Shown: in pieces, positions 1,020-17,813 of the stretch
How the letters are laid out: every line of letters begins with the position of its first letter
Position numbering within the stretch: position 1 is the stretch's first letter
NCBI GenBank assembly: GCA_049974095.1
Contig: JBMFJD010000006.1
Span: 1 to 32,000 of the forward strand
Direction of reading: 5' to 3'
Source: Nanopusillaceae archaeon
GTDB taxonomy: Archaea; Nanobdellota; Nanobdellia; Nanobdellales; Nanobdellaceae
DNA length: 32,000 nt
Made by a program: the position numbers and the translations under genes
The notes under the pieces: model-generated
Databases searched by the model: none
What the model saw: the letters and a program-made list of their open reading frames with translations, nothing else
What the model was told of the DNA's origin: nothing

Positions 1020-1045
1020 ACAAATGTTTATATGTGTTTTTTATA
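1020..1045 (+). promoter_or_regulatory. promoter cassette ACAAATGTTTATATGTGTTTTTTATA (TATA box plus conserved downstream GTGTTTT)
   Basis: The identical 26-mer recurs at 4543-4568 and 5422-5447, each 36-45 nt upstream of an ATG. TTTATAT is an archaeal TATA-like core. Confidence 0.7.
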
Positions 1046-3638: not shown

Positions 3639-3696
3639 TTTTTTGGTTTTGATGATTTTCAATAAACATTTATAAGGTTTTAATATAATAATATAT

Positions 3697-4536
3697 ATGG
3701 TTTTGATGGGAAAAAAGGATAAAGTATTATTTGAAATAAAGGAATTATTAGAAAAGTTAAGAAAGGATAAGGGGTTATATATTATTGAAAGCGATGGGAA
3801 AGTAATATATTCATTATATATATATTATACAAATATAGAGTATCAAAGGAAATATGTTAATGATTTATTGAAAAAGCATAATATTAGTAAAAGATATTAT
3901 GGATTCTTTAGATATTTGTTAAGTGATTATGTTAGAGTACGTGTTTATGAGGCATATATAAGTAAAAAAGTTAAAACATTGGAAAAGGTTAGGGATGATT
4001 TAAAAAGGATATATGATAACTTTGATGAAAAAGTATATTTAGATAAGTTAGAAAAAGAGATAAATAATATTTTTGAAAATGATTTATGGCTTATGAATAA
4101 ATATATAGATGATATGAATAAATTAAGAGAGTTGGAAGATTATTATTTAAAATTTTTAGATAAGAAAGGGGATTATGATTTTGTTGTTAGGCAATTTGAA
4201 AATGAAATAATAAATGGTTATATTACTAAATATAAGTATAGAATAACTAAGATAATAAAGGATAGGATCAAGAAAATTATTAATGATAATAATTTTTCTT
4301 TGATTTGGATTAAAAATGGATTTGCTTTAATAGTAAATTATCGCGATAAATATTTTGAAAATGGGGAATGGGTTTATATAGATAATGCATTTTATTTAAT
4401 TGATTTGAGGAATAAAGGGGTGTTTGATGTTAGTAAAAAGATAGATGAATTTGTTGAAAAGACGGCAACAAAGGAAATAAGTAGTTATAATTTTAATATG
4501 CTAAAAAGGTTAAAATTAGAGGATTTGTTAATATAG
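3697..4536 (+). CDS. tandem paralog 3 of the same family
   Basis: TATA-like AACATTTATAAGG at 3665-3677. ATG at 3697 (alternative 3706, in GGTTTTGATGGG). Motifs include IYYTNIEYQRK, WIKNGFALIV and FYLIDLRNKGVFDVSKKI. Confidence 0.8.
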   Translation: MVLMGKKDKVLFEIKELLEKLRKDKGLYIIESDGKVIYSLYIYYTNIEYQRKYVNDLLKKHNISKRYYGFFRYLLSDYVRVRVYEAYISKKVKTLEKVRDDLKRIYDNFDEKVYLDKLEKEINNIFENDLWLMNKYIDDMNKLRELEDYYLKFLDKKGDYDFVVRQFENEIINGYITKYKYRITKIIKDRIKKIINDNNFSLIWIKNGFALIVNYRDKYFENGEWVYIDNAFYLIDLRNKGVFDVSKKIDEFVEKTATKEISSYNFNMLKRLKLEDLLI

Positions 4537-4542
4537 TTTTTT

Positions 4543-4568
4543 ACAAATGTTTATATGTGTTTTTTATA
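4543..4568 (+). promoter_or_regulatory. promoter cassette, identical 26-mer to 1020-1045
   Basis: Exact repeat ACAAATGTTTATATGTGTTTTTTATA, lying 36 nt upstream of the ATG at 4579. Confidence 0.7.
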
Positions 4569-4578
4569 TATAGTTTTG

Positions 4579-5415
4579 ATGGGATGGAAAGATAAAATGA
4601 TGGGAGAGATAAGGCTTTATGTAGAAATGTTAAGGAAAAAAGGGTTAGCGGTTGAATATGAGGAATATTGGAAAAAGATAAAGTTAAGGGTATATTATAC
4701 AAATTTAGGGTATCAAAGGAAAATTATAGATGAATTAATGAAAAAGCATAATATACCAAAGAGTTATATAGATAAGATATATTATTTAGAAAAATATTAT
4801 TATGAGTATATAAAGTTAAGATATTTAAAGGTTGATTATTGGATAAATAAGAGAAATTTAAAGGATTTATTAGAGAAATTAAAGAGTATATATAATAATT
4901 ATAATGAGGAAGAAAATTTAAAGTATATAAAAAATGTTATTGATAGTAATGTTAAGTTAATTTTAGATGAGGTAGAGGATTTAAGGAAAAAAGAGAAAGA
5001 AAAAAGAAAGAAATTAAAATTATATTTGGATTATTTAAATGGGAAAATTGATTATAGTAAGGAAATAAAGGACATTGAGGGATGGTTAAGTGATACAAAA
5101 TTAAAATATAGTAAAAAAGTAAGGGAATTTATTAAAGGTAAAATAGAGGGGTTATTAAACAATAAAAATATTAAGATTTTCAAAATTGAGAATGGTATTG
5201 CTTTAGTAATGACTTATGAGGATAAATATTTTAAGGGAGGGTGGAATTATGAAAATAATAAGTTTTATTTGGTAGATATAAGGAATGGAAATTATAAAGA
5301 TATTAGTAATATAATAACTAAAAAAGTAGATACTGAAAACAATATTTTAGAGTTATTAGGACCTGATGAAATTTATAGGCTTGAGAATATAAATATTATA
5401 GAATTGTTAGTTTAG
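4579..5415 (+). CDS. tandem paralog 4 of the same family
   Basis: The ORF-track start at 4555 lies in the TATA box. ATG at 4579 gives MGWKDKMMGEIRLY, matching the paralog 1 N-terminus. Shared motifs include LDYLNGKIDY and NNKFYLVDIRN. Confidence 0.8.
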   Translation: MGWKDKMMGEIRLYVEMLRKKGLAVEYEEYWKKIKLRVYYTNLGYQRKIIDELMKKHNIPKSYIDKIYYLEKYYYEYIKLRYLKVDYWINKRNLKDLLEKLKSIYNNYNEEENLKYIKNVIDSNVKLILDEVEDLRKKEKEKRKKLKLYLDYLNGKIDYSKEIKDIEGWLSDTKLKYSKKVREFIKGKIEGLLNNKNIKIFKIENGIALVMTYEDKYFKGGWNYENNKFYLVDIRNGNYKDISNIITKKVDTENNILELLGPDEIYRLENINIIELLV

Positions 5416-5421
5416 TTTTTT

Positions 5422-5447
5422 ACAAATGTTTATATGTGTTTTTTATA
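5422..5447 (+). promoter_or_regulatory. promoter cassette, identical 26-mer to 1020-1045
   Basis: Exact repeat, 45 nt upstream of the ATG at 5467. Confidence 0.7.
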
Positions 5448-5466: not shown

Positions 5467-6591
5467 ATGACAGAAAAACAAAGTACTTTGTTAAAAGTAT
5501 TTGAGAGAGCTAGAAAGGAAAGGATAGCAATAGGATTATTTGGGAGTTATGGGATAGGAAAGAGTAGCTTAGTGTATCAATATGCATTAATGAAAAGTAG
5601 GGAGACTGGTAGGGAATTAAAAATATGGCATGAATTGACGGAAAAAGAGAAAAAAGAGATATTAGAAAATCCTGAAAAGTACTTTATAGTAGTAGATATA
5701 AAGGGTAGTTTAATATCATTGGATAATTTAGTGATACCAATACCTGGGGAAAATGGGATAAGATGGGAAATACCTTTATGGATGAAAGTATTTGAAAATG
5801 ATAAAAGTATGGGGATATTGTTTATTGATGAGATTAATATGACATTGCCATCATTACAAAGTCTATTATTTGAGTTAGTATTTCAAAGAAAGTTAGGGGA
5901 AAGTACAATAAAGGGAGATGTATTAATTATAACTGCAGGTAATGATTTGGAAAGTAATAATGTAGCTAAAGAATTACCACAACCGCTTGTTAATAGAATG
6001 ATATTTATTAATGCAAATGAAATATTTGATATTGAGGCATGGTTAGAATATGCAAAAAATAACAAAATAGATAATAGGGTAATCGGATGGGTATTGTTTA
6101 ATAATAGAAATATTAATTATTCTGGTGATGTTATGAAACAATCAACAACACCTAGATCTTTGGAAATGTTAAGTAAGATGATTAATGGGGAAAGGGACAT
6201 AAATTATATAAGGATGGTAGCATATGGATTATTAGAACAAAATGATGCATTACAATTTACTACATTCGTAGAATTATATGAAAAGTTTAGTGATATAGAT
6301 AAGTATATTGATAATATTGAATTATTAAAGGAATTAAAAGAGGATGAGAGGATTATTATTATGATGAAAATAACGGAAAGGTATATTAGTGATAAGTTAA
6401 GTTTAGAGAAATATTATAATGTATTGGATAGGTTAAGTGATATAAGTAAAATGTTAGTGGTATTTGCATTAAGGTATTTGAAATATCAAAATGTTGATAG
6501 GTTTAGGATATTGTTAGATAAGGTAATAAAGGAAAATAGTAAGGTTTATAATTTGTTAGGGCAAATGTTAGAATTTGAAAATAAATTATGA
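5467..6591 (+). CDS. MoxR-like AAA+ ATPase (AAA_5-like)
   Basis: Walker A GSYGIGKS, Walker B ILFIDEINM, sensor-1-like IITAGN. Size is ~375 aa. Its stop overlaps the ATG of the VWA gene (ATGA at 6588-6591), the classic MoxR-VWA pairing. Confidence 0.8.
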   Translation: MTEKQSTLLKVFERARKERIAIGLFGSYGIGKSSLVYQYALMKSRETGRELKIWHELTEKEKKEILENPEKYFIVVDIKGSLISLDNLVIPIPGENGIRWEIPLWMKVFENDKSMGILFIDEINMTLPSLQSLLFELVFQRKLGESTIKGDVLIITAGNDLESNNVAKELPQPLVNRMIFINANEIFDIEAWLEYAKNNKIDNRVIGWVLFNNRNINYSGDVMKQSTTPRSLEMLSKMINGERDINYIRMVAYGLLEQNDALQFTTFVELYEKFSDIDKYIDNIELLKELKEDERIIIMMKITERYISDKLSLEKYYNVLDRLSDISKMLVVFALRYLKYQNVDRFRILLDKVIKENSKVYNLLGQMLEFENKL

Positions 6592-7916
6592 TGGATGAGG
6601 AATTATTAAAGTTAGTAATTGCTAAAAATTTTCCATTATTTGCACCAATATTAAGTAAGATAAGGATAAAGGAAGATAAGAGTTTACAATATCCTGCAGG
6701 GTTGAATTATAGAGAAAGAACAATATATATTAATCCTGATCAATTTGATGAATGTAATAGTAAAGAAAAGATGTTTATAATAGCACATGAGATAATGCAT
6801 TATCTATTAGTACATGATCCTAAAGCATTGAGGGATAAAAATTTATTGTTAGTATTTAATTTAGTTAGGGATGCACAAATCAATCATATATTATATAAAC
6901 AAATGAACTATATGGCAGAGGGGGTTATAACATTAGATATATTAGAAAGTATGAGTGATAAGGTAAGGGAATACTTTGATGGGGATGTTGAAAAATTCCT
7001 TAATGAGGATGAGTATTTTATTGTTAAGTTAATGTTAGAGGATGAGAAAGTTAAGGGGATGATCAATAAGATGATTGATGTATTAGAAAGCGGGGATGAT
7101 CTTGATGAAATTAGTAAGAAAATTAAGGATATATTAAGAGAGAATGGGGTTAATGTGGATTTAGATGAGATTAGTAGGGATATAGTAAAAGAATATAATG
7201 AAAGTAAGGAATTGGGGGAAATGAGTGATGAGGAAATAAGGAAAATTGTTAATGAGGGTATGGAAATGTTAGAGAAAGGTAGGTTATTAAGTAAAATGTT
7301 TAATCCTGAAAGTAAGGAATTAGATATAAAGTTAAGGAAAAAAAGGATTAAATGGAAAGAGGCATTAAGGCAGGTAATGAGTGAGATAGGGGCATTGGCT
7401 ACGGATTATGATTTAACAAAATTGGATAAGAAAGCATGGGTATTAAAGACATATGTACCTGGTGTTATAAAGGAAAATGAAAGTATTAATGTAATAATTG
7501 GTATAGATGTAAGTGGTAGTATTAGTGATTATGAATATATGGAATTTATTAATGAGGTATATAATTTAATGAGTGATGTAAAGGTAAATGGGAAAATAGT
7601 ATTATGGGATGATAAGGTTGAGAGAGTGGTTAAGGTGGATAATGGATGGAATAATGAAATATTGAGAGAATTAAAGAATAGAGTAGGTTATGGGGGTACA
7701 ATAATAAAGGAATTCTTTAATAAGGCTAATGAGTTAGTAAGGAATAAGAGAAATAGTTATTTGATAATATTGACTGATGGGGAACATGAAAAGGTAGATA
7801 GAGAATGGGTTAAGGATTATAAGAAAGTGGTATTTGTTATAAGTAAGAATGGAAAGGTTGAGAATCTGATGGGTATAAAGGATATGAAAAATGTATATAT
7901 TACTTTTTTAGAATAA
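6588..7916 (+). CDS. VWA-domain protein with N-terminal HExxH putative metallopeptidase domain (DUF2201-like architecture)
   Basis: HEIMH in IIAHEIMHYLLVHD. MIDAS-like GIDVSGS followed by LTDGE in the C-terminal half. Translationally coupled to the upstream MoxR gene. Confidence 0.75.
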   Translation: MMDEELLKLVIAKNFPLFAPILSKIRIKEDKSLQYPAGLNYRERTIYINPDQFDECNSKEKMFIIAHEIMHYLLVHDPKALRDKNLLLVFNLVRDAQINHILYKQMNYMAEGVITLDILESMSDKVREYFDGDVEKFLNEDEYFIVKLMLEDEKVKGMINKMIDVLESGDDLDEISKKIKDILRENGVNVDLDEISRDIVKEYNESKELGEMSDEEIRKIVNEGMEMLEKGRLLSKMFNPESKELDIKLRKKRIKWKEALRQVMSEIGALATDYDLTKLDKKAWVLKTYVPGVIKENESINVIIGIDVSGSISDYEYMEFINEVYNLMSDVKVNGKIVLWDDKVERVVKVDNGWNNEILRELKNRVGYGGTIIKEFFNKANELVRNKRNSYLIILTDGEHEKVDREWVKDYKKVVFVISKNGKVENLMGIKDMKNVYITFLE

Positions 7917-7932
7917 TTTTTTTAAAAAAATT
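7915..7932. terminator. bidirectional oligo-T terminator / perfect palindrome AATTTTTTTAAAAAAATT
   Basis: It sits between convergent stops (7914-7916 plus strand, 7931-7933 minus strand) and gives a T7 run on each strand directly after each stop. Confidence 0.6.
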
Positions 7933-10885: not shown

Positions 10886-12871
10886 TCATTCGCTCGATTT
10901 TCTTCTTTTCTTTATTAATATTAATGGGATAAGTACTAATGCTGAGATGGTAAATATTGTAGATGTAATTGTTATATAGTTGAATTCTCTGGTCATTGTT
11001 GAGTGTAGATATATTTGTATTGATTTGTTTATGGTTATATTTTTTGGATCTATTGTATATATGTCATAGTAAAAGAAATGGTCTTCTACCAGTACTGATT
11101 TATTGATATATATTTTCTGGTCTGCGGGTAAATAATCTGAATATGATTTTATATTTGTTATTGTTGTATTTCCTATGGTTATATTTATTGGTATTTGAGA
11201 GTCTATTTTCACATAGTATTCGGGGGTACAATAGTTTAGTAATTGTATTTCTCTTGATCCGTATGTTGTTATGTATATTTGATTTGGACATTCATACCTT
11301 AGATCATTATAGTAGTAGTATTTTTCTAATGATATAGATAATGTTGTACCATTCTTAGCATAAATAGTACCTTTACCAATGTATTTTTGACCATCTACAT
11401 AATATACACCGGCAGGTATTGTAAAGTTAACCTGGTATTCTGGTACACAATAGTTTAGTAACTGGACTGTTCCTGGACTGTATACTGGTACATATACTAA
11501 ATAAGGACATTCATATCTTATAGCATCGTAGTAGTAGTATCTATTAAGGTATACTATTATAGTTGTACCATTTTCGACAGTAAAGGTATTTCTACCCTGG
11601 TACTGTTTACCATCTATATAGTATGTGCCATTTGGTAGGATAAGATCAACATAATAATATAGAGTATAATCTGGATTAATCGTGTAAGATTTATTAATTA
11701 GTAATGGTATAACCGGACCAGGGTAAGATACGTTATTTACATATATGCCTTTTAGGTAATAATATCCACCAGGTACATATATTTTTGGTTGGAAAGTATA
11801 TATTTTGTACAGGACTACTGGGTATTGTTCTATATGATATCTTTTTGTTATTGGGTCATATATGGTTACTGTAAATGGTTTGTATGGTACATTGCCTAGA
11901 TAATCTGGACGGAAATTATCAGTATTTAGGTATACTGATGTTGAGGATACTGGTAATGGATTGATATTTGTTGATGTTTCTGCTGTGGACAGTCCATAGT
12001 TAAATACGTAAGGGACTGGTGTTAATATACCGTTGTTATTGTATAGTAATGTTAGATACCCACTTACTTGAGTTACATACACACAGTCCTCACCACTTAA
12101 ACCACCTATAACTAATTCAAGATTTTGTGGTGATTCTACTGGTGTTAATTGTGGAGCAACCTGGAAATATGCAGATTTTGATGGTACTTGTATTGTTACA
12201 TTATCATACCAGATTATATTATTACCATCTGTTGAATATCCAAATTGTATTACTGGGTAATTACCAGACATGGTTACATTGGTAATTAAGTATATTACAA
12301 AGGGGTAGGCTAATGAGTATTTGTTAGTGTAATATATGTAGACATAAGTATAACTTAGAAGAGGTGGATAACCATACATACTACCTTTACCAGACAATAG
12401 TTTACTTTTAGCTATTGTTTGATACTTATCTATTTCCCAGATATTATTTACTAATCTATAATAGTTGTTATCATTATTTATATCTACTGTATTCTGGACC
12501 CATAGATAATATGTTTTTCCATCATCAGCATTAATTAATAGTACGCCGTTTAGTTGTATGGATGAAGCATCATAATATTTTTCTTTATTACATTTGTTAC
12601 CAGGTCTGACATGTAAGTAATCTAAATATACAAAGCCAATTATTTCGTTTGTTATATATGAATACTGGTATGCTTCACCATTTTTAATTGCAATACCATA
12701 GTCTGAAATTCCTATTGGCATATAGATTAAATTTGGGTTGGACGGGTCTGGTTTAAAATTTTGTACAAATGAGTCATAACAACCATAACCATTAATAACA
12801 CATGTTTGTGCTATTGAAAAAGGATATATGGCAGGTAGAGATACAGATAGGGATAGACCAAAAAGATCCAT
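10886..12871 (-). CDS. thermopsin-family (peptidase A5-like) protein with two C-terminal ~73-aa repeats and a C-terminal membrane anchor
   Basis: Residues ~45-305 align by eye to Sulfolobus thermopsin as I recall it: PIGISDYG, YITNEIIGFV, SIQLNGVL, YYLWVQN, NNIWE, ELVIGG and ILTPVPYVFNYGLSTAETS. Tandem repeats occupy aa ~406-479 and 480-552. The C-terminus is a TM segment followed by KKRRKSSE. Many N-x-S/T sequons. Confidence 0.65.
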   Translation of the reverse strand: MDLFGLSLSVSLPAIYPFSIAQTCVINGYGCYDSFVQNFKPDPSNPNLIYMPIGISDYGIAIKNGEAYQYSYITNEIIGFVYLDYLHVRPGNKCNKEKYYDASSIQLNGVLLINADDGKTYYLWVQNTVDINNDNNYYRLVNNIWEIDKYQTIAKSKLLSGKGSMYGYPPLLSYTYVYIYYTNKYSLAYPFVIYLITNVTMSGNYPVIQFGYSTDGNNIIWYDNVTIQVPSKSAYFQVAPQLTPVESPQNLELVIGGLSGEDCVYVTQVSGYLTLLYNNNGILTPVPYVFNYGLSTAETSTNINPLPVSSTSVYLNTDNFRPDYLGNVPYKPFTVTIYDPITKRYHIEQYPVVLYKIYTFQPKIYVPGGYYYLKGIYVNNVSYPGPVIPLLINKSYTINPDYTLYYYVDLILPNGTYYIDGKQYQGRNTFTVENGTTIIVYLNRYYYYDAIRYECPYLVYVPVYSPGTVQLLNYCVPEYQVNFTIPAGVYYVDGQKYIGKGTIYAKNGTTLSISLEKYYYYNDLRYECPNQIYITTYGSREIQLLNYCTPEYYVKIDSQIPINITIGNTTITNIKSYSDYLPADQKIYINKSVLVEDHFFYYDIYTIDPKNITINKSIQIYLHSTMTREFNYITITSTIFTISALVLIPLILIKKRRKSSE

Positions 12872-13454: not shown

Positions 13455-13476
13455 ACAAATATTTATATGTGTTTTT
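13455..13476 (+). promoter_or_regulatory. promoter-like element ACAAATATTTATATGTGTTTTT pointing into the inverted repeat, with no ORF downstream
   Basis: It matches the block A promoter cassette at 20 of 22 positions. Its first 20 nt are identical to the reverse complement of 31333-31352, upstream of the RHH gene. On the plus strand the only downstream reading is ATG GTA AAA AAC TAG. Confidence 0.45.
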
Positions 13477-13601
13477 GGTGGTATGGTAAAAAACTAGTTT
13501 TTCTAAATATATATATTATGAAAGTTATTACCGATTTTTGCATGTTAAGTCGTATATTAGGAAGATATGTATAAAGGTAGGGAATTTTGGTAAGCCATAG
13601 A

Positions 13602-14401
13602 GGAATGAGTTTATAAATGTTTGCGCCTCAAAATTTGACTAAAATTTATCTTTTATTTCGGACCCCCCTTAACAAAAAAGAAAATCACCTTTCTGTTCCA
13701 ACTTTGAAGTGATAAAAATAGTATATTATATTATGTTTTGTTTAGAATATATACAATATATAATATAGAAAAAATTTATAAATTTTTTATAATATGTGTT
13801 AATATGTGTTACATTTGTTTTTATTTGTTCACATATTTATATTTGTTATTTGCTATATGTGTTATTATGTGTATATGTTACTATTGTTACTAAGTAGTAG
13901 TTACATAAATGTATTTATAAATATATCGATATAAATATATATTATATAGAATAGCATGTTTAAAAAATATATATAGAAAAATATATATTAAAAAAAATAT
14001 ATAGCTAGAAGTATGTCAAAAAATAAATGTCACTACTTATTAATAATAAATAGTAACATAATAATTTAAATAATTTTTTAATAATAATAATAATTTATTA
14101 TTATTATTAATAACAACTACTTAGTAATAATAGTAAATATAAGTAACTACTGTATAGTGGTAGTAGTAAAAATAACACATATTTACACATATAACACATA
14201 AAAACACATATATAGAAAAATTTATAAATATTAAGTACAATATATAGTATAACTATTTCTATGTTAACAAATAATTGATATCTATGTTATCACTTTTTAG
14301 TAAGGGCAGTTTTTGGTAAAAGTTTTTGTGAAAGGGGGGTCAAAAAATAAATGATAAATTTGAGTCCAATTATGAGGCGTAAAAATTTATAAATACATTC
14401 C
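13602..14401. repeat. large imperfect inverted repeat: arms ~13602-13904 and ~14110-14401, spacer ~205 bp
   Basis: Arms align as reverse complements at about 75-85% identity by eye. C6 (13663-13668) mirrors G6 (14334-14339). TTACTATTGTTACTAAGTAGTAGTTAC (13878-13904) mirrors 14110-14136. Confidence 0.85.
13905..14109. other. nearly pure A/T core of the inverted repeat (candidate DNA-unwinding element or terminal-repeat junction)
   Basis: (A)nTATATA(T)AG direct repeats at 13962-14005. ATATCGATAT palindrome at 13923-13932. The (AAT)5..(ATT)4 palindrome at 14080-14111 runs just past the core into the right arm. Confidence 0.5.
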
Positions 14402-14514
14402 AAAATATACAAAAATACTTTCTATAGGAATACCTGTACATTCTATAAAGTCATGATAGACGTTCAAAAATAAGATGCGAATTTCTTTTAAAGTTATCTG
14501 AAATAATATATTTT

Positions 14515-15680: not shown

Positions 15681-17813
15681 ATGGCAGCGGAAAAAGGAAA
15701 AAAAGATAAATTTGTTTTTAGCGGATCCATTATATCACTACAGCAACTCGAGGCCTATATACCAGATAAATTGAAAGAAATGTATATAAATTTTTTGAAG
15801 CAACAAGCCCAACAAATTACACTTGTTGACCAGTCAGCAAGATACTATTTTGAGATAATTAAAAAGCAAGCTATCGAAAATTTCTTTAAATTAGAAGATT
15901 TTGAATATACTTTTATAAATTTTGAAGATTTATATAAGTTTTTACATTCTTTAAAGAAAGGATCAGAATTTAGTAAAGCAGGAAGTGTAATTAAATATTT
16001 ACTACAACATTATGTGAATGAAGATCTACAGATCACATGGCACCTTCCAATATTCGTAAAAAATATTCCTGATAATTATACAAAAACTGTAAAAGAATTT
16101 TTTAAATCAAATGATGACGATATTGTTATCTTGAAAGGCATTATCAATTCTATAACATATATAGAAGGTATTCCAAGATATTTTCTAATTCAACACTCAT
16201 TGTGTGGAGGTAGGTTCTTAATTGAGAATGATATACCAACTAATAAAGATTTGAGGAATATACTAAAAGTTAAAGTAAATTCATGTCCATTGTGTGGCTC
16301 TCCTGAAGGCCAATTTATTGTTGAGCATATTGTTACAACAAATGCATATAAGTTAACAATAACCGATATTCCTAAAGATGAAGGAAAAGAAATACAATCT
16401 ATTGAGGCATATCTATTTGGTAGTGCAATAGATATGTATAGTGTACAACATACAAGAGTTAATTTGGTTGGTATTGCCAGGAGGGTATTTGATGGTAAAG
16501 AAGCAAGAGCATATTTAGAAGTTATTGGTATTGAACCTACAGAAAAAACAGTAGAAGATATAGAATTAAAAGACGAAGATATAAGAAAGATTGAAAATAT
16601 TGTTAAGGAATCCGGATATGATATAATTGATATGGTAGCGGAATCTATGTTACCAAATATAAAAGGAGAGCATTACAAATATATTAAAAGAGCTGTGTTA
16701 TTACAGGCTATATCTGTTAGTCAACAAAAAGAAATTGATTTATTAGCAGATAGATTACATATAAATATATTGTTATTAGGAGATCCAGGTACAGGTAAAT
16801 CTACATTATTAAGAACAATTGCAAAATTAATACCTAGATCAAGATATACTGTAGCTACTTCCTTAACAAAGGCAGGTTTACTGGGTACAGTTACAAAATC
16901 TGAAGAGGGTAAATGGGTATTAGAAATTGGTGCATTACCATCCGCATCTGGTGGAATATTATGTATTGATGAAGCAAATAAGTTATCTTTCGATGATATA
17001 AAATCGTTAAATGAGGCAATGGAACATGGAACAGCAACAATCGATAAGGCAGGTGTACATGTAACATTAAGGGCAAATGCAGCAGTATTAGCAGCGGCAA
17101 ATCCAAAATATGGAAGGTGGGATCCAAATAGGGAATTAATAAGCCAGATAGATATAGAACCAACGATGTTATCAAGGTTTGATTTAATATTCGTATTGAG
17201 GGATATACCAAACAAAGAACAAGATATATTAGAAGCTATGGAGATATTAGGAAGAAATAAAGTTAAAAAGATGTTATTCGATAAAGATTTTATATTAAAA
17301 TACATAGCATATGCTAGAACAATAAACCCAGAATTAACTAGCGAAACGGAAGCATATATTGCAAAATTATATGCTGATCTAAGGGATAAAACCAAAGAAG
17401 AATTTCCAGTAACTAGAAGGCAATTACAAACAATAAGAAGGTTGGCAATTGCTATTGCAAAAGCAAGATTAAGCAATGTTGTTACAAAGGAAGATGTTGA
17501 TTATGCATGGGAAATAATGTCAAATAGTATATATAGCATTATTGGTAAAAATGCTACTGTTCTGGATTTTGGTGTTGTTGAAACTGGAGTTAGGAGTAGC
17601 ACAAAAACCAGAACAATGTTAGTAAAAGAGGTTATTCAACAATTAAATAAAATGTATGGTAAAGGTGTTACCTTTAATGATATATATAATTATCTAAAAG
17701 AAAAGTATAATCTAGATATATCTCAATATGAGCTTAGAGAAATTATTAATGTATTGAAACATACTGGAGATATATATGAACCAGATGAGGGTTTATACCT
17801 TGCAATATTTTAG
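15681..17813 (+). CDS. mcm: MCM replicative helicase, full length (710 aa)
   Basis: N-terminal Zn-motif HSLCGG...CPLCGS. Walker A GDPGTGKS (DNA ~16779-16802), Walker B ILCIDEANKL, sensor-1 AAANP, arginine finger SRFDLIFVL, lid RRQLQTIRRLAIAIAKA, C-terminal winged helix. Confidence 0.9.
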   Translation: MAAEKGKKDKFVFSGSIISLQQLEAYIPDKLKEMYINFLKQQAQQITLVDQSARYYFEIIKKQAIENFFKLEDFEYTFINFEDLYKFLHSLKKGSEFSKAGSVIKYLLQHYVNEDLQITWHLPIFVKNIPDNYTKTVKEFFKSNDDDIVILKGIINSITYIEGIPRYFLIQHSLCGGRFLIENDIPTNKDLRNILKVKVNSCPLCGSPEGQFIVEHIVTTNAYKLTITDIPKDEGKEIQSIEAYLFGSAIDMYSVQHTRVNLVGIARRVFDGKEARAYLEVIGIEPTEKTVEDIELKDEDIRKIENIVKESGYDIIDMVAESMLPNIKGEHYKYIKRAVLLQAISVSQQKEIDLLADRLHINILLLGDPGTGKSTLLRTIAKLIPRSRYTVATSLTKAGLLGTVTKSEEGKWVLEIGALPSASGGILCIDEANKLSFDDIKSLNEAMEHGTATIDKAGVHVTLRANAAVLAAANPKYGRWDPNRELISQIDIEPTMLSRFDLIFVLRDIPNKEQDILEAMEILGRNKVKKMLFDKDFILKYIAYARTINPELTSETEAYIAKLYADLRDKTKEEFPVTRRQLQTIRRLAIAIAKARLSNVVTKEDVDYAWEIMSNSIYSIIGKNATVLDFGVVETGVRSSTKTRTMLVKEVIQQLNKMYGKGVTFNDIYNYLKEKYNLDISQYELREIINVLKHTGDIYEPDEGLYLAIF

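Follow-up and report, generated by a model that had tools for sequence, protein, structure and literature searches.

What does an ATPase-protease gene pair do when it lies directly downstream of an array of duplicated orphan genes in an archaeal genome fragment? The question is raised by contig JBMFJD010000006.1, of hot-spring origin, from a Nanopusillaceae archaeon (GenBank assembly GCA_049974095.1), of which we analyzed positions 1 to 32,000 (hereafter the window; 32 of the contig's 59.9 kb). In the window, a gene for an AAA+ ATPase overlaps one for a VWA-domain protein with an HExxH motif, and the two follow a K/E-rich gene and four paralogous genes, A to D (Table 1). The initial annotation had read them as a MoxR-type ATPase and a VWA/HExxH partner, co-regulated with a coiled-coil array and serving either virion or filament morphogenesis or a defense-type system. 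We find that the pair adds an archaeal member to a module already known but uncharacterized, the AAA_5-DUF2201 module represented by gp24 and gp25 of phage N4, and that what is new here is a conserved third partner and its organization as an array.

The pair belongs to the AAA_5-DUF2201 module of N4-like phages

Reading of the sequence placed the Walker A and Walker B motifs of the ATPase, the HEIMH, DVSGS and TDGE motifs of its partner and the ATGA at their junction where they had been annotated. Across 21 homologs of the ATPase, residues G26, G29, G31, K32, S33, D121, N159 (sensor 1), R177 (arginine finger) and R230 (sensor 2) were invariant and E122 nearly so. The Pfam family AAA_5 was matched by 12 of the 21 at E≤1e-3 (best 4e-11), and a profile built from all of them retrieved from the PDB the AAA modules of midasin (1e-13), MoxR (2r44, 2e-3), McrB (5e-3) and NorQ (9e-3), along with archaeal LonB (8e-7) and NtrC-type ATPases (2e-5). 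No match of the window ATPase to Pfam AAA_3 (PF07726) was reported, and the bpMoxR model matched three distant homologs only, not the window protein. On these profile comparisons, "MoxR-like, AAA_5 clade" would be a fair description of the ATPase, and strict membership in the MoxR family would go beyond it.

The partner protein matched DUF2201_N (PF13203, "putative metallopeptidase") over residues 10-269 with 41.8 bits against a cut-off of 23.2, and DUF2201 (PF09967) over residues 302-404 with 31.1 bits against 26.4; VWA_CoxE (PF05762) also scored above its cut-off. The annotated combination of a MoxR-related AAA_5 ATPase with a VWA protein bearing an HExxH domain was thus borne out, with the peptidase domain N-terminal and the VWA domain C-terminal. 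Its catalytic residues and those of its metal-ion-dependent adhesion site (MIDAS) are intact: among 11 homologs, down to 23% identity, H67, E68, H71, H76, D307, S309, S311 and D397 were invariant and T396 nearly so. A profile of the zincin region aligned across the HExxH helix with the solved minigluzincin MJ1213 (projannalysin; PDB search, E 8.6e-6), in agreement with the suggestion that this region is related to metallopeptidases. Minigluzincins include the Wss1 and Spartan proteases (PMC4559962).

The AlphaFold2 (AF2) model of the DUF2201 protein (mean predicted local distance difference test score, pLDDT, 81.4) displayed a three-stranded sheet followed by the HExxH helix, then a K/E-rich helical middle, a low-confidence linker and a Rossmann-like C-terminal domain. 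In Foldseek, the C-terminal domain of the model retrieved VWA domains from 2e-5, including the MIDAS domain of MDN1, and the search with the whole model was dominated by this domain. The protein also matched PHROG 1314 (phrog_1314; E 9.5e-41), whose label, "HNH endonuclease", is the RefSeq product name of N4 gp25 and was probably inherited from it; we found nothing in support of an HNH nuclease identity.

Where else does such a pair occur? In tblastn against phage genomes the ATPase matched 271 records, including Bacillus phage G and N4-like phages; the N4 match was gp24, and the next gene is gp25. The ATPase also matched PHROG 1297 (phrog_1297) at E 1.3e-40. Comparison by hhalign gave 99.8% over 289 columns for the ATPase with gp24 and 98.3% over 329 columns for the DUF2201 protein with gp25. 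Since tblastn of the VWA protein against the phage records returned no match at 1e-5, its link to gp25 needed profile methods. Both N4 genes are in the 14-gene core genome of N4-like phages and are middle genes, not late structural ones (PMC4193335), and a gp25 ortholog has been annotated with pfam13203 (PMC6992544). By these profile comparisons, gp24 and gp25 are the closest known relatives of the pair, rather than the Acidianus two-tailed virus (ATV) proteins p618 and p892, on which the initial annotation had drawn.

The same arrangement extends well beyond N4. Of 40 distant DUF2201 loci from bacteria and viruses, 39 had an ATPase gene next to the DUF2201 gene; no third neighbor was shared across lineages, and the ATPase alone recurred. 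The pair is therefore an autonomous, widespread, uncharacterized two-gene module: it belongs to the N4-like phage core, and both marine viral contigs and many bacteria commonly carry it. The searchable literature contained no functional study of DUF2201.

In the window the two genes are tightly joined, the ATPase stop codon (TGA, 6589-6591) overlapping the start codon of the DUF2201 gene (ATG, 6588-6590). At 10 of 12 loci of the archaeal clade to which the pair belongs, this junction measured -22 to +2 nt. T-runs are the usual archaeal terminator signal, and the T8 run directly 3' of the VWA stop codon is likely the end of the transcription unit.

A paralog family adjoins the pair in archaeal relatives

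The archaeal clade is rare: a search of 5.8 billion proteins gave about 15 close ones, and metagenomes added a handful of short contigs. In seven distinct relatives, the pair is directly adjoined by members of the paralog family, often without any gap between the genes. A 29-kb contig from the same metagenome-assembled genome (MAG), L110, has five full-length members and two short open reading frames (ORFs) upstream of the pair, in an order unlike that of the window. In L001, L002, L003 and L088, a 274-amino-acid member and a 160-amino-acid C-terminal fragment abut the ATPase gene at distances of 0-3 nt. L007 has one member abutting the ATPase gene and another further upstream on the opposite strand, and in L004 a member overlaps the called ATPase start. 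Two remote members were found at more distant loci: one of 281 amino acids directly upstream of the pair in L111, whose ATPase is 44% identical (hidden Markov model (HMM) 2e-8, hhalign 92.5%), and one of 309 amino acids directly downstream of the VWA gene in L006, whose ATPase is 38% identical (HMM 5.5e-9, hhalign 96.3%). A metagenome scan added a few short contigs of the archaeal clade, of which L121 alone gave a full-length neighboring ORF, one with no detectable relation to the family.

The gene-neighborhood survey thus found homologs of the pair adjoining the paralog family elsewhere, as had been expected from the window. The association is conserved within this archaeal clade only, and the family was absent beside bacterial and phage homologs of the pair. 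Operon-like abutment in relatives is stronger evidence of co-expression than a shared promoter, and co-expression of the family with the pair is probable.

What kind of protein do the paralogs encode? Here the annotated coiled-coil array stood in part. Paralogs A to D are true paralogs, mutually 32-40% identical; the first gene of the array, which encodes the K/E-rich protein, is not detectably related to them. We rejected it as a fifth paralog, as it gave no match to the paralog HMM and 0.3% in hhalign. This protein is related to 192-amino-acid ORFs upstream of the arrays in L001 and L007 (BLASTP 4e-12 against L007:885-1463). The AF2 model of paralog D (pLDDT 81.9) consisted of an alpha/beta N-domain, helices at 91-107 and 110-153, two shorter helices and a beta-rich C-domain, so the long helix accounts for the middle third only and more than half of each paralog is globular. 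Judged by the model, "coiled-coil array" overstates the helical part. The sequence of paralog D contains no signal peptide and no membrane segment, and the paralogs are cytoplasmic proteins of about 275 amino acids, each with the same order of alpha/beta, long helical and beta parts.

Searches did not connect the paralogs to a known family. The fold of paralog D had no match in the PDB or BFVD, and comparisons of the paralogs with Pfam, PHROG, NCBIfam and PADLOC gave nothing significant. A sequence-profile search of the PDB returned sub-significant, coiled-coil-like noise (keratin coil 2B and designed helical bundles, E ~0.01). A profile search of 1.84 billion cluster representatives recovered 12 members at E≤1e-10, and because of this small number we regard the family as lineage-restricted.

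The helix in the paralogs bears on the morphogenesis reading, in which the ATPase and the VWA protein would chaperone assembly of a virion or filament from helical paralogs, as in ATV. The ATV biology cited in the initial annotation agrees with the literature: the MoxR-type p618 and the VWA protein p892 interact, and p618 also interacts with the filament-forming p800 (PMC4124505). These interactions, the long central helix with its weak similarity to keratin and designed bundles, and a window that looks like a mobile element, with almost no Pfam genes but MCM, AAA and thermopsin, all favor such a role. Against it, p618 aligned with the ATPase over the generic AAA core only (hhalign 82%, 129 columns) and p892 with its partner over the VWA core only (77%, 97 columns), p892 having no zincin domain in the aligned part, and p800 was unrelated to the paralogs (0.1%). 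The true homologs, gp24 and gp25, lie outside the late structural module, most of each paralog is globular, and neither a capsid nor any other virion hallmark turned up in the window. Nothing links the pair to the making of virions, and we consider this explanation improbable.

Comparison with the L110 orthologs, whose ATPase is 89% identical to that of the window, showed purifying selection on all parts of the module: the ratio of nonsynonymous to synonymous substitution rates (dN/dS) was 0.18 for the ATPase, 0.23 for the VWA protein and 0.23-0.31 for the paralogs. As the paralog values resemble those of the ATPase and the VWA protein, the paralogs are constrained proteins, and we rejected diversifying selection on them.

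This result bears in turn on the idea of a defense or counter-defense system, in which a MoxR-VWA switch would control diversifying effector or sensor paralogs. MoxR-vWA pairs do form the cores of NTP-dependent conflict systems (Kaur, Burroughs, Iyer and Aravind, 2020; PMC7159879), the number and order of paralogs differ within one MAG (four in the window; five full-length members plus two short ORFs in L110), and the module lies on an apparent mobile element. However, the paralogs are under ordinary purifying selection, and PADLOC returned no significant match for nine window proteins. No VMAP, iSTAND, FtsH, beta-propeller or effector domain is present, the paralogs themselves having no recognizable effector domain, and the pair has its homologs among the core genes of lytic N4-like phages. 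The defense-type system proposed at the outset thus found little to sustain it, and we think it very unlikely.

Promoters, start motifs and base composition of the array

A 26-mer (ACAAATGTTTATATGTGTTTTTTATA) that looks like an archaeal promoter, with transcription factor B recognition element (BRE) and TATA box, occurs in three exact copies, one of them ahead of the pair as had been annotated. None of 100 dinucleotide-preserving shuffles matched the 25-mer searched. Copies 2 and 3 lie within 35 identical nucleotides (4534-4568 and 5413-5447) that include the preceding TAG stop codon and a T6 run resembling an archaeal terminator; a T-run is present at the end of each gene. In L110, the promoter ahead of the ATPase gene is kept with one mismatch. 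Versions with 3-4 mismatches also occur upstream of unrelated genes, at 13456 (+), 23334 (+), 21795 (-) and 31327 (-), and we therefore rejected the 26-mer as an array-specific regulatory signature and read it as the contig's general strong-promoter consensus, recently copied. Co-regulation of pair and array through a shared promoter, as initially proposed, keeps its exact copy, but the evidence is weaker than claimed, the promoter being a general one. Paralogs A and C have degenerate copies only (that of A at 1906-1930; C also with a degenerate TATA box). Paralog B has no promoter of its own and starts 9 nt past the T-run that follows paralog A, and it must be read through from that gene.

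A second motif, GTTTTGATG, in which ATG is the start codon, is specific to the array: the window holds nine copies, all on the plus strand between 363 and 5469, where 0.3 would be expected. Each cassette start and the start of the ATPase gene carry it, and eleven copies in L110 are arranged likewise. We rejected it as a promoter or initiator element, since its distance from the TATA box varies (4, 13 or 15 nt) and paralog B has the motif without a promoter; because of this varying distance, we assign it to the 5' end of the cassette rather than to the promoter. Two orphan copies, at 363 and at 3646 (the latter ahead of paralog C), are followed only by mini-ORFs of 7-14 codons and look like remnants of deleted cassettes. 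The arrangement suggests that the array evolves by unequal recombination at the junction of T-run, promoter and GTTTTGATG.

Base composition sets the array and pair apart from the rest of the window. In the seven genes between 1061 and 7916, cytosine makes up 1.5-5.6% of the coding strand and 0.7-2.7% of third codon positions, guanine makes up 16-25% of third positions, and GC skew is 0.59-0.85. All other window genes have 4.5-18% cytosine, and 3.2-18% at third positions. This extreme depletion marks the seven genes as one unit, and because third positions show it, it is not an effect of amino acid composition alone. The array and pair of L110 (L110:669-8505) and all of L005 share it; L001 and L004 show a milder form, and L111, L112 and L006 lack it. 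It may have arisen because the non-template strand is deaminated where transcription is very heavy and the temperature high, through selection against cytosine in mRNAs, or by import of the block from a cytosine-poor genome. The locus is a clear example of gene-set-specific cytosine depletion.

These observations also bear on a further alternative, that the pair acts as gp24 and gp25 would, in an early or middle function of a mobile element directed at host or replication proteins, and that the paralogs are merely adjacent and share a standard promoter. The N4 genes are transcribed as middle genes among those for replication and nucleotide metabolism, and the window pair likewise adjoins an AAA gene with an MCM-like P-loop and lies 6-8 kb from a candidate replication origin and an MCM gene. 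That the promoter consensus precedes unrelated genes, and that bacterial and phage homologs do without the paralogs, would fit mere adjacency. However, the paralog family is still found adjacent at ATPase identities as low as 38-44%, whether before or after the pair and often without a gap, and the shared composition of array and pair is found nowhere else in the window. We regard this alternative as possible, but on balance unlikely.

A proposed chaperone-protease function

We tentatively read the whole package as an ATP-driven chaperone or protease module with the paralogs as its clients, a view that we find plausible if not quite probable. The sequence analysis establishes the domain identities, the intact catalytic and MIDAS residues, the homology to gp24 and gp25, the conserved linkage with the paralogs and the purifying selection on every part; the promoter and GTTTTGATG start context common to array and pair, and their cytosine depletion, speak for a shared regime. 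In MoxR-VWA pairs, the client is bound at an acidic residue by the MIDAS of the VWA protein and is remodeled by the ATPase (PMC7159879). By analogy with CbbQ-CbbO, midasin and RavA-ViaA, we infer physical interaction among the components, proteolysis and the identity of the clients. The MIDAS site would capture an acidic residue of a client protein, the ATPase, as a hexamer, would remodel the bound client, and the fused zincin domain would cleave the client or a partner. The paralogs, being encoded in cis, would be the most likely clients and would be matured or assembled in this way. In the archaeal lineage, an N4-type module may have gained a third partner, a lineage-restricted paralog family that was then duplicated and reshuffled.

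Several observations weigh against this proposal. The window ATPase scored only 15.5 bits against AAA_5 (PF07728), below the cut-off of 22. The zincin fold of its partner is suggested by sequence profiles and model topology, the fold search having confirmed the VWA part alone. At L005, L112, L113 and L121, the neighboring ORFs, three of which encode 245-270 amino acids, have no detectable similarity to the paralog family. Bacterial and phage pairs work without the family, so the paralogs cannot be a universal client, and the adjacency shows a functional link and is not proof of an enzyme-substrate relation. Finally, gp24 and gp25 are themselves listed as of unknown function in studies of N4-like phages (PMC2784036, PMC4193335).

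The paralog family is a concrete client candidate for the module and makes the role of gp24 and gp25 testable. More speculatively, and with a low probability in our estimate, the locus could be an unrecognized three-component system of nanoarchaeal viruses or plasmids, in which an N4-type ATPase-protease matures rapidly duplicating orphan-fold proteins that act at the parasite-host interface, for example in counter-defense or host takeover. With its clients encoded in cis, such a locus would open a first experimental route to what two unexplained genes in the core of all N4-like phages do, and the cytosine depletion of exactly these genes would be a mark either of very heavy transcription at high temperature or of selection against cytosine in their mRNAs.

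Genomic setting

The window is AT-rich (20-32% G+C), and few of its approximately 35 ORFs match any Pfam family. Those that do are the pair, the AAA protein with an MCM-type P-loop, a thermopsin, an MCM helicase and a truncated MCM-like ATPase. Scans of the window for tRNAs and against Rfam gave no matches, and it contains no ribosomal or other housekeeping genes. Capsid, portal, terminase and other virion hallmarks were not found in the window by searches with PHROGs, the PDB and, for large ORFs, phage tblastn. In these searches, viral resemblance was limited to the MCM gene, which is similar to archaeal-virus MCMs (Table 1). Close relatives were not in IMG/VR, and single-protein scans of IMG/VR with the VWA protein and one paralog found no relatives. 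Judged by the gene content of the window, a plasmid, a virus or a variable island is a better fit than a core chromosome, and the contig is probably a mobile element. The Nanopusillaceae label is a result of metagenome binning, and as binning placed L088, a close relative, in a bacterial "Paceibacter" MAG, the host assignment of the contig is provisional.

L110 (JGI Ga0453806_32047, 28,986 bp) and the window belong to the same MAG (locus-tag prefix ACP5GJ) and are syntenic, with 73-93% protein identity and paralogs that differ in number and order. The bin may combine two strains or elements, or else a single genome has the region twice.

A 12-kb stretch of the window encodes three MCM-related ATPases. 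The candidate replication origin lies about 1.2 kb upstream of the gene block that contains the MCM gene, and has long imperfect inverted repeats (for example 13602-13679/14324-14401 and 13746-13829/14174-14257; 74-78% complementary), TATGTGT/ACACATA repeat units and AT-rich tandem repeats. The thermopsin has an internal duplication of about 160 amino acids in its C-terminal half and a membrane anchor at its end, and it adjoins the module in L004 and L110 too. Despite its composition, the small ORF at the start of the window seems, from its similarity to ORFs in relatives, to be a real conserved gene. For the 303-amino-acid orphan ORF (ORFan), L110 contains a second paralog (36% identical) and L111 a homolog (30% identical), and by this similarity it appears to be another family that travels with the module. 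At L111:5945-11651, many co-directional ORFans, spaced by about 30 nt, come after the pair in a long run that includes two more small paralog families (247/266/337 and 132/134/140 amino acids). Arrays of duplicated orphan genes seem to be typical of these elements.

Table 1. Features of the window, with positions counted from its first nucleotide.
Feature	Position	Strand	Remarks
ORF, 125 amino acids	494-871	+	11.9% G+C; rich in N, K, I and L; 78-79% identical to L001 and L110 ORFs
K/E-rich protein, 268 amino acids	1061-1867	+	Outside the paralog family
Paralog A, ~284 amino acids	1953-2807	+	L110 ortholog 73% identical, dN/dS 0.23
Paralog B, 271 amino acids	2823-3638	+	L110 ortholog 77% identical, dN/dS 0.23
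Paralog C, 276 amino acids	3706-4536	+	Paralog HMM
Paralog D, 278 amino acids	4579-5415	+	L110 ortholog 83% identical, dN/dS 0.31
AAA+ ATPase, 374 amino acids	5467-6591	+	AAA_5 (dynein/midasin/MoxR) type; N4 gp24 homolog; Walker A and Walker B
Walker A, GSYGIGKS	5542-5565	+	In ATPase
Walker B, FIDEIN	5821-5838	+	In ATPase
DUF2201 protein, 442 amino acids	6588-7916	+	Putative N-terminal zincin domain, helical middle, C-terminal VWA; N4 gp25 homolog
HEIMH (HExxH)	6786-6800	+	In DUF2201 protein; plus invariant H76
DVSGS (MIDAS)	7506-7520	+	In DUF2201 protein
TDGE (MIDAS)	7773-7784	+	In DUF2201 protein
T8 run	7917-7924	+	Directly 3' of VWA stop codon
Promoter-like 26-mer, copy 1	1020-1045	+	BRE/TATA-like, TTTATATG; upstream of K/E-rich gene
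Promoter-like 26-mer, copy 2	4543-4568	+	Ahead of paralog D
Promoter-like 26-mer, copy 3	5422-5447	+	Ahead of ATPase
GTTTTGATG copies	363, 797, 1061, 1947, 2817, 3646, 3700, 4573, 5461	+	
AAA protein, 243 amino acids	7931-8662	-	MCM-type P-loop; winged-helix-like N-terminal region
ORFan, 303 amino acids	9913-10824	-	Homologs at L110:10499-12446 and L111:12826-13794
Thermopsin-family acid protease	10886-12871	-	Membrane-anchored; Pfam 9e-51
Candidate replication origin	13500-14500		No ORF of ≥60 amino acids across 1 kb; between divergently oriented gene blocks
MCM helicase, full-length	15681-17813	+	Pfam; winged helix; 25-33% identical to haloarchaeal, Methanocaldococcus and Altiarchaeum virus MCMs
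Truncated MCM-like ATPase, 285 amino acids	18933-19790	+	MCM P-loop only

Comparison with known systems

The cellular pairs CbbQ-CbbO, NorQ-NorD, RavA-ViaA and CoxD-CoxE, and also midasin, combine an AAA_5-type ATPase with a MIDAS VWA protein, as the window pair does. In contrast to these, the VWA partner in the window is fused to a metallopeptidase domain, the ATPase is too divergent for the Pfam AAA_5 and AAA_3 thresholds, and no metalloenzyme client is encoded near the pair. The MoxR-vWA ternary conflict systems resemble the window in their three-component layout, in which a third, variable protein accompanies a MoxR-like ATPase and a vWA protein, and a metallopeptidase is occasionally fused to their vWA component (PMC7159879), as in the DUF2201 protein. 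The third protein of the window, however, is of another kind, being neither VMAP, iSTAND nor FtsH, nor a beta-propeller.

With ATV, the window shares the pairing of an AAA+ ATPase with a VWA protein, the thermophilic archaeal habitat of the element that encodes them and, in p800 and the paralogs, a helical protein as a possible client. The ATV genes are dispersed in the genome, unlike the window pair, and to judge from the alignments the resemblance is one of analogy, not homology. Proteins of bacteria and uncultured viruses with DUF2201_N and DUF2201 have the same Pfam domains as the window protein and the same adjacency to an AAA_5 ATPase, and relative to these the zincin and VWA domains of the archaeal clade are set apart by a long, helical, K/E-rich insert.

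The comparison with N4 gp24 and gp25 (PHROGs 1297 and 1314; Schitoviridae) is the closest. Identity is only about 20%, N4 leaves 167 nt between genes that overlap in the window, and no homolog of the paralog family lies beside gp24 and gp25. Homology nonetheless extends along almost the entire length of both proteins, the genes follow the same order, with the ATPase followed by the DUF2201 protein, and the HExxH and MIDAS motifs are alike, although one pair is carried by a bacteriophage and the other by an archaeal, nanoarchaeon-binned contig. The comparison thus reveals a gene module shared between bacteriophages and DPANN-associated elements.

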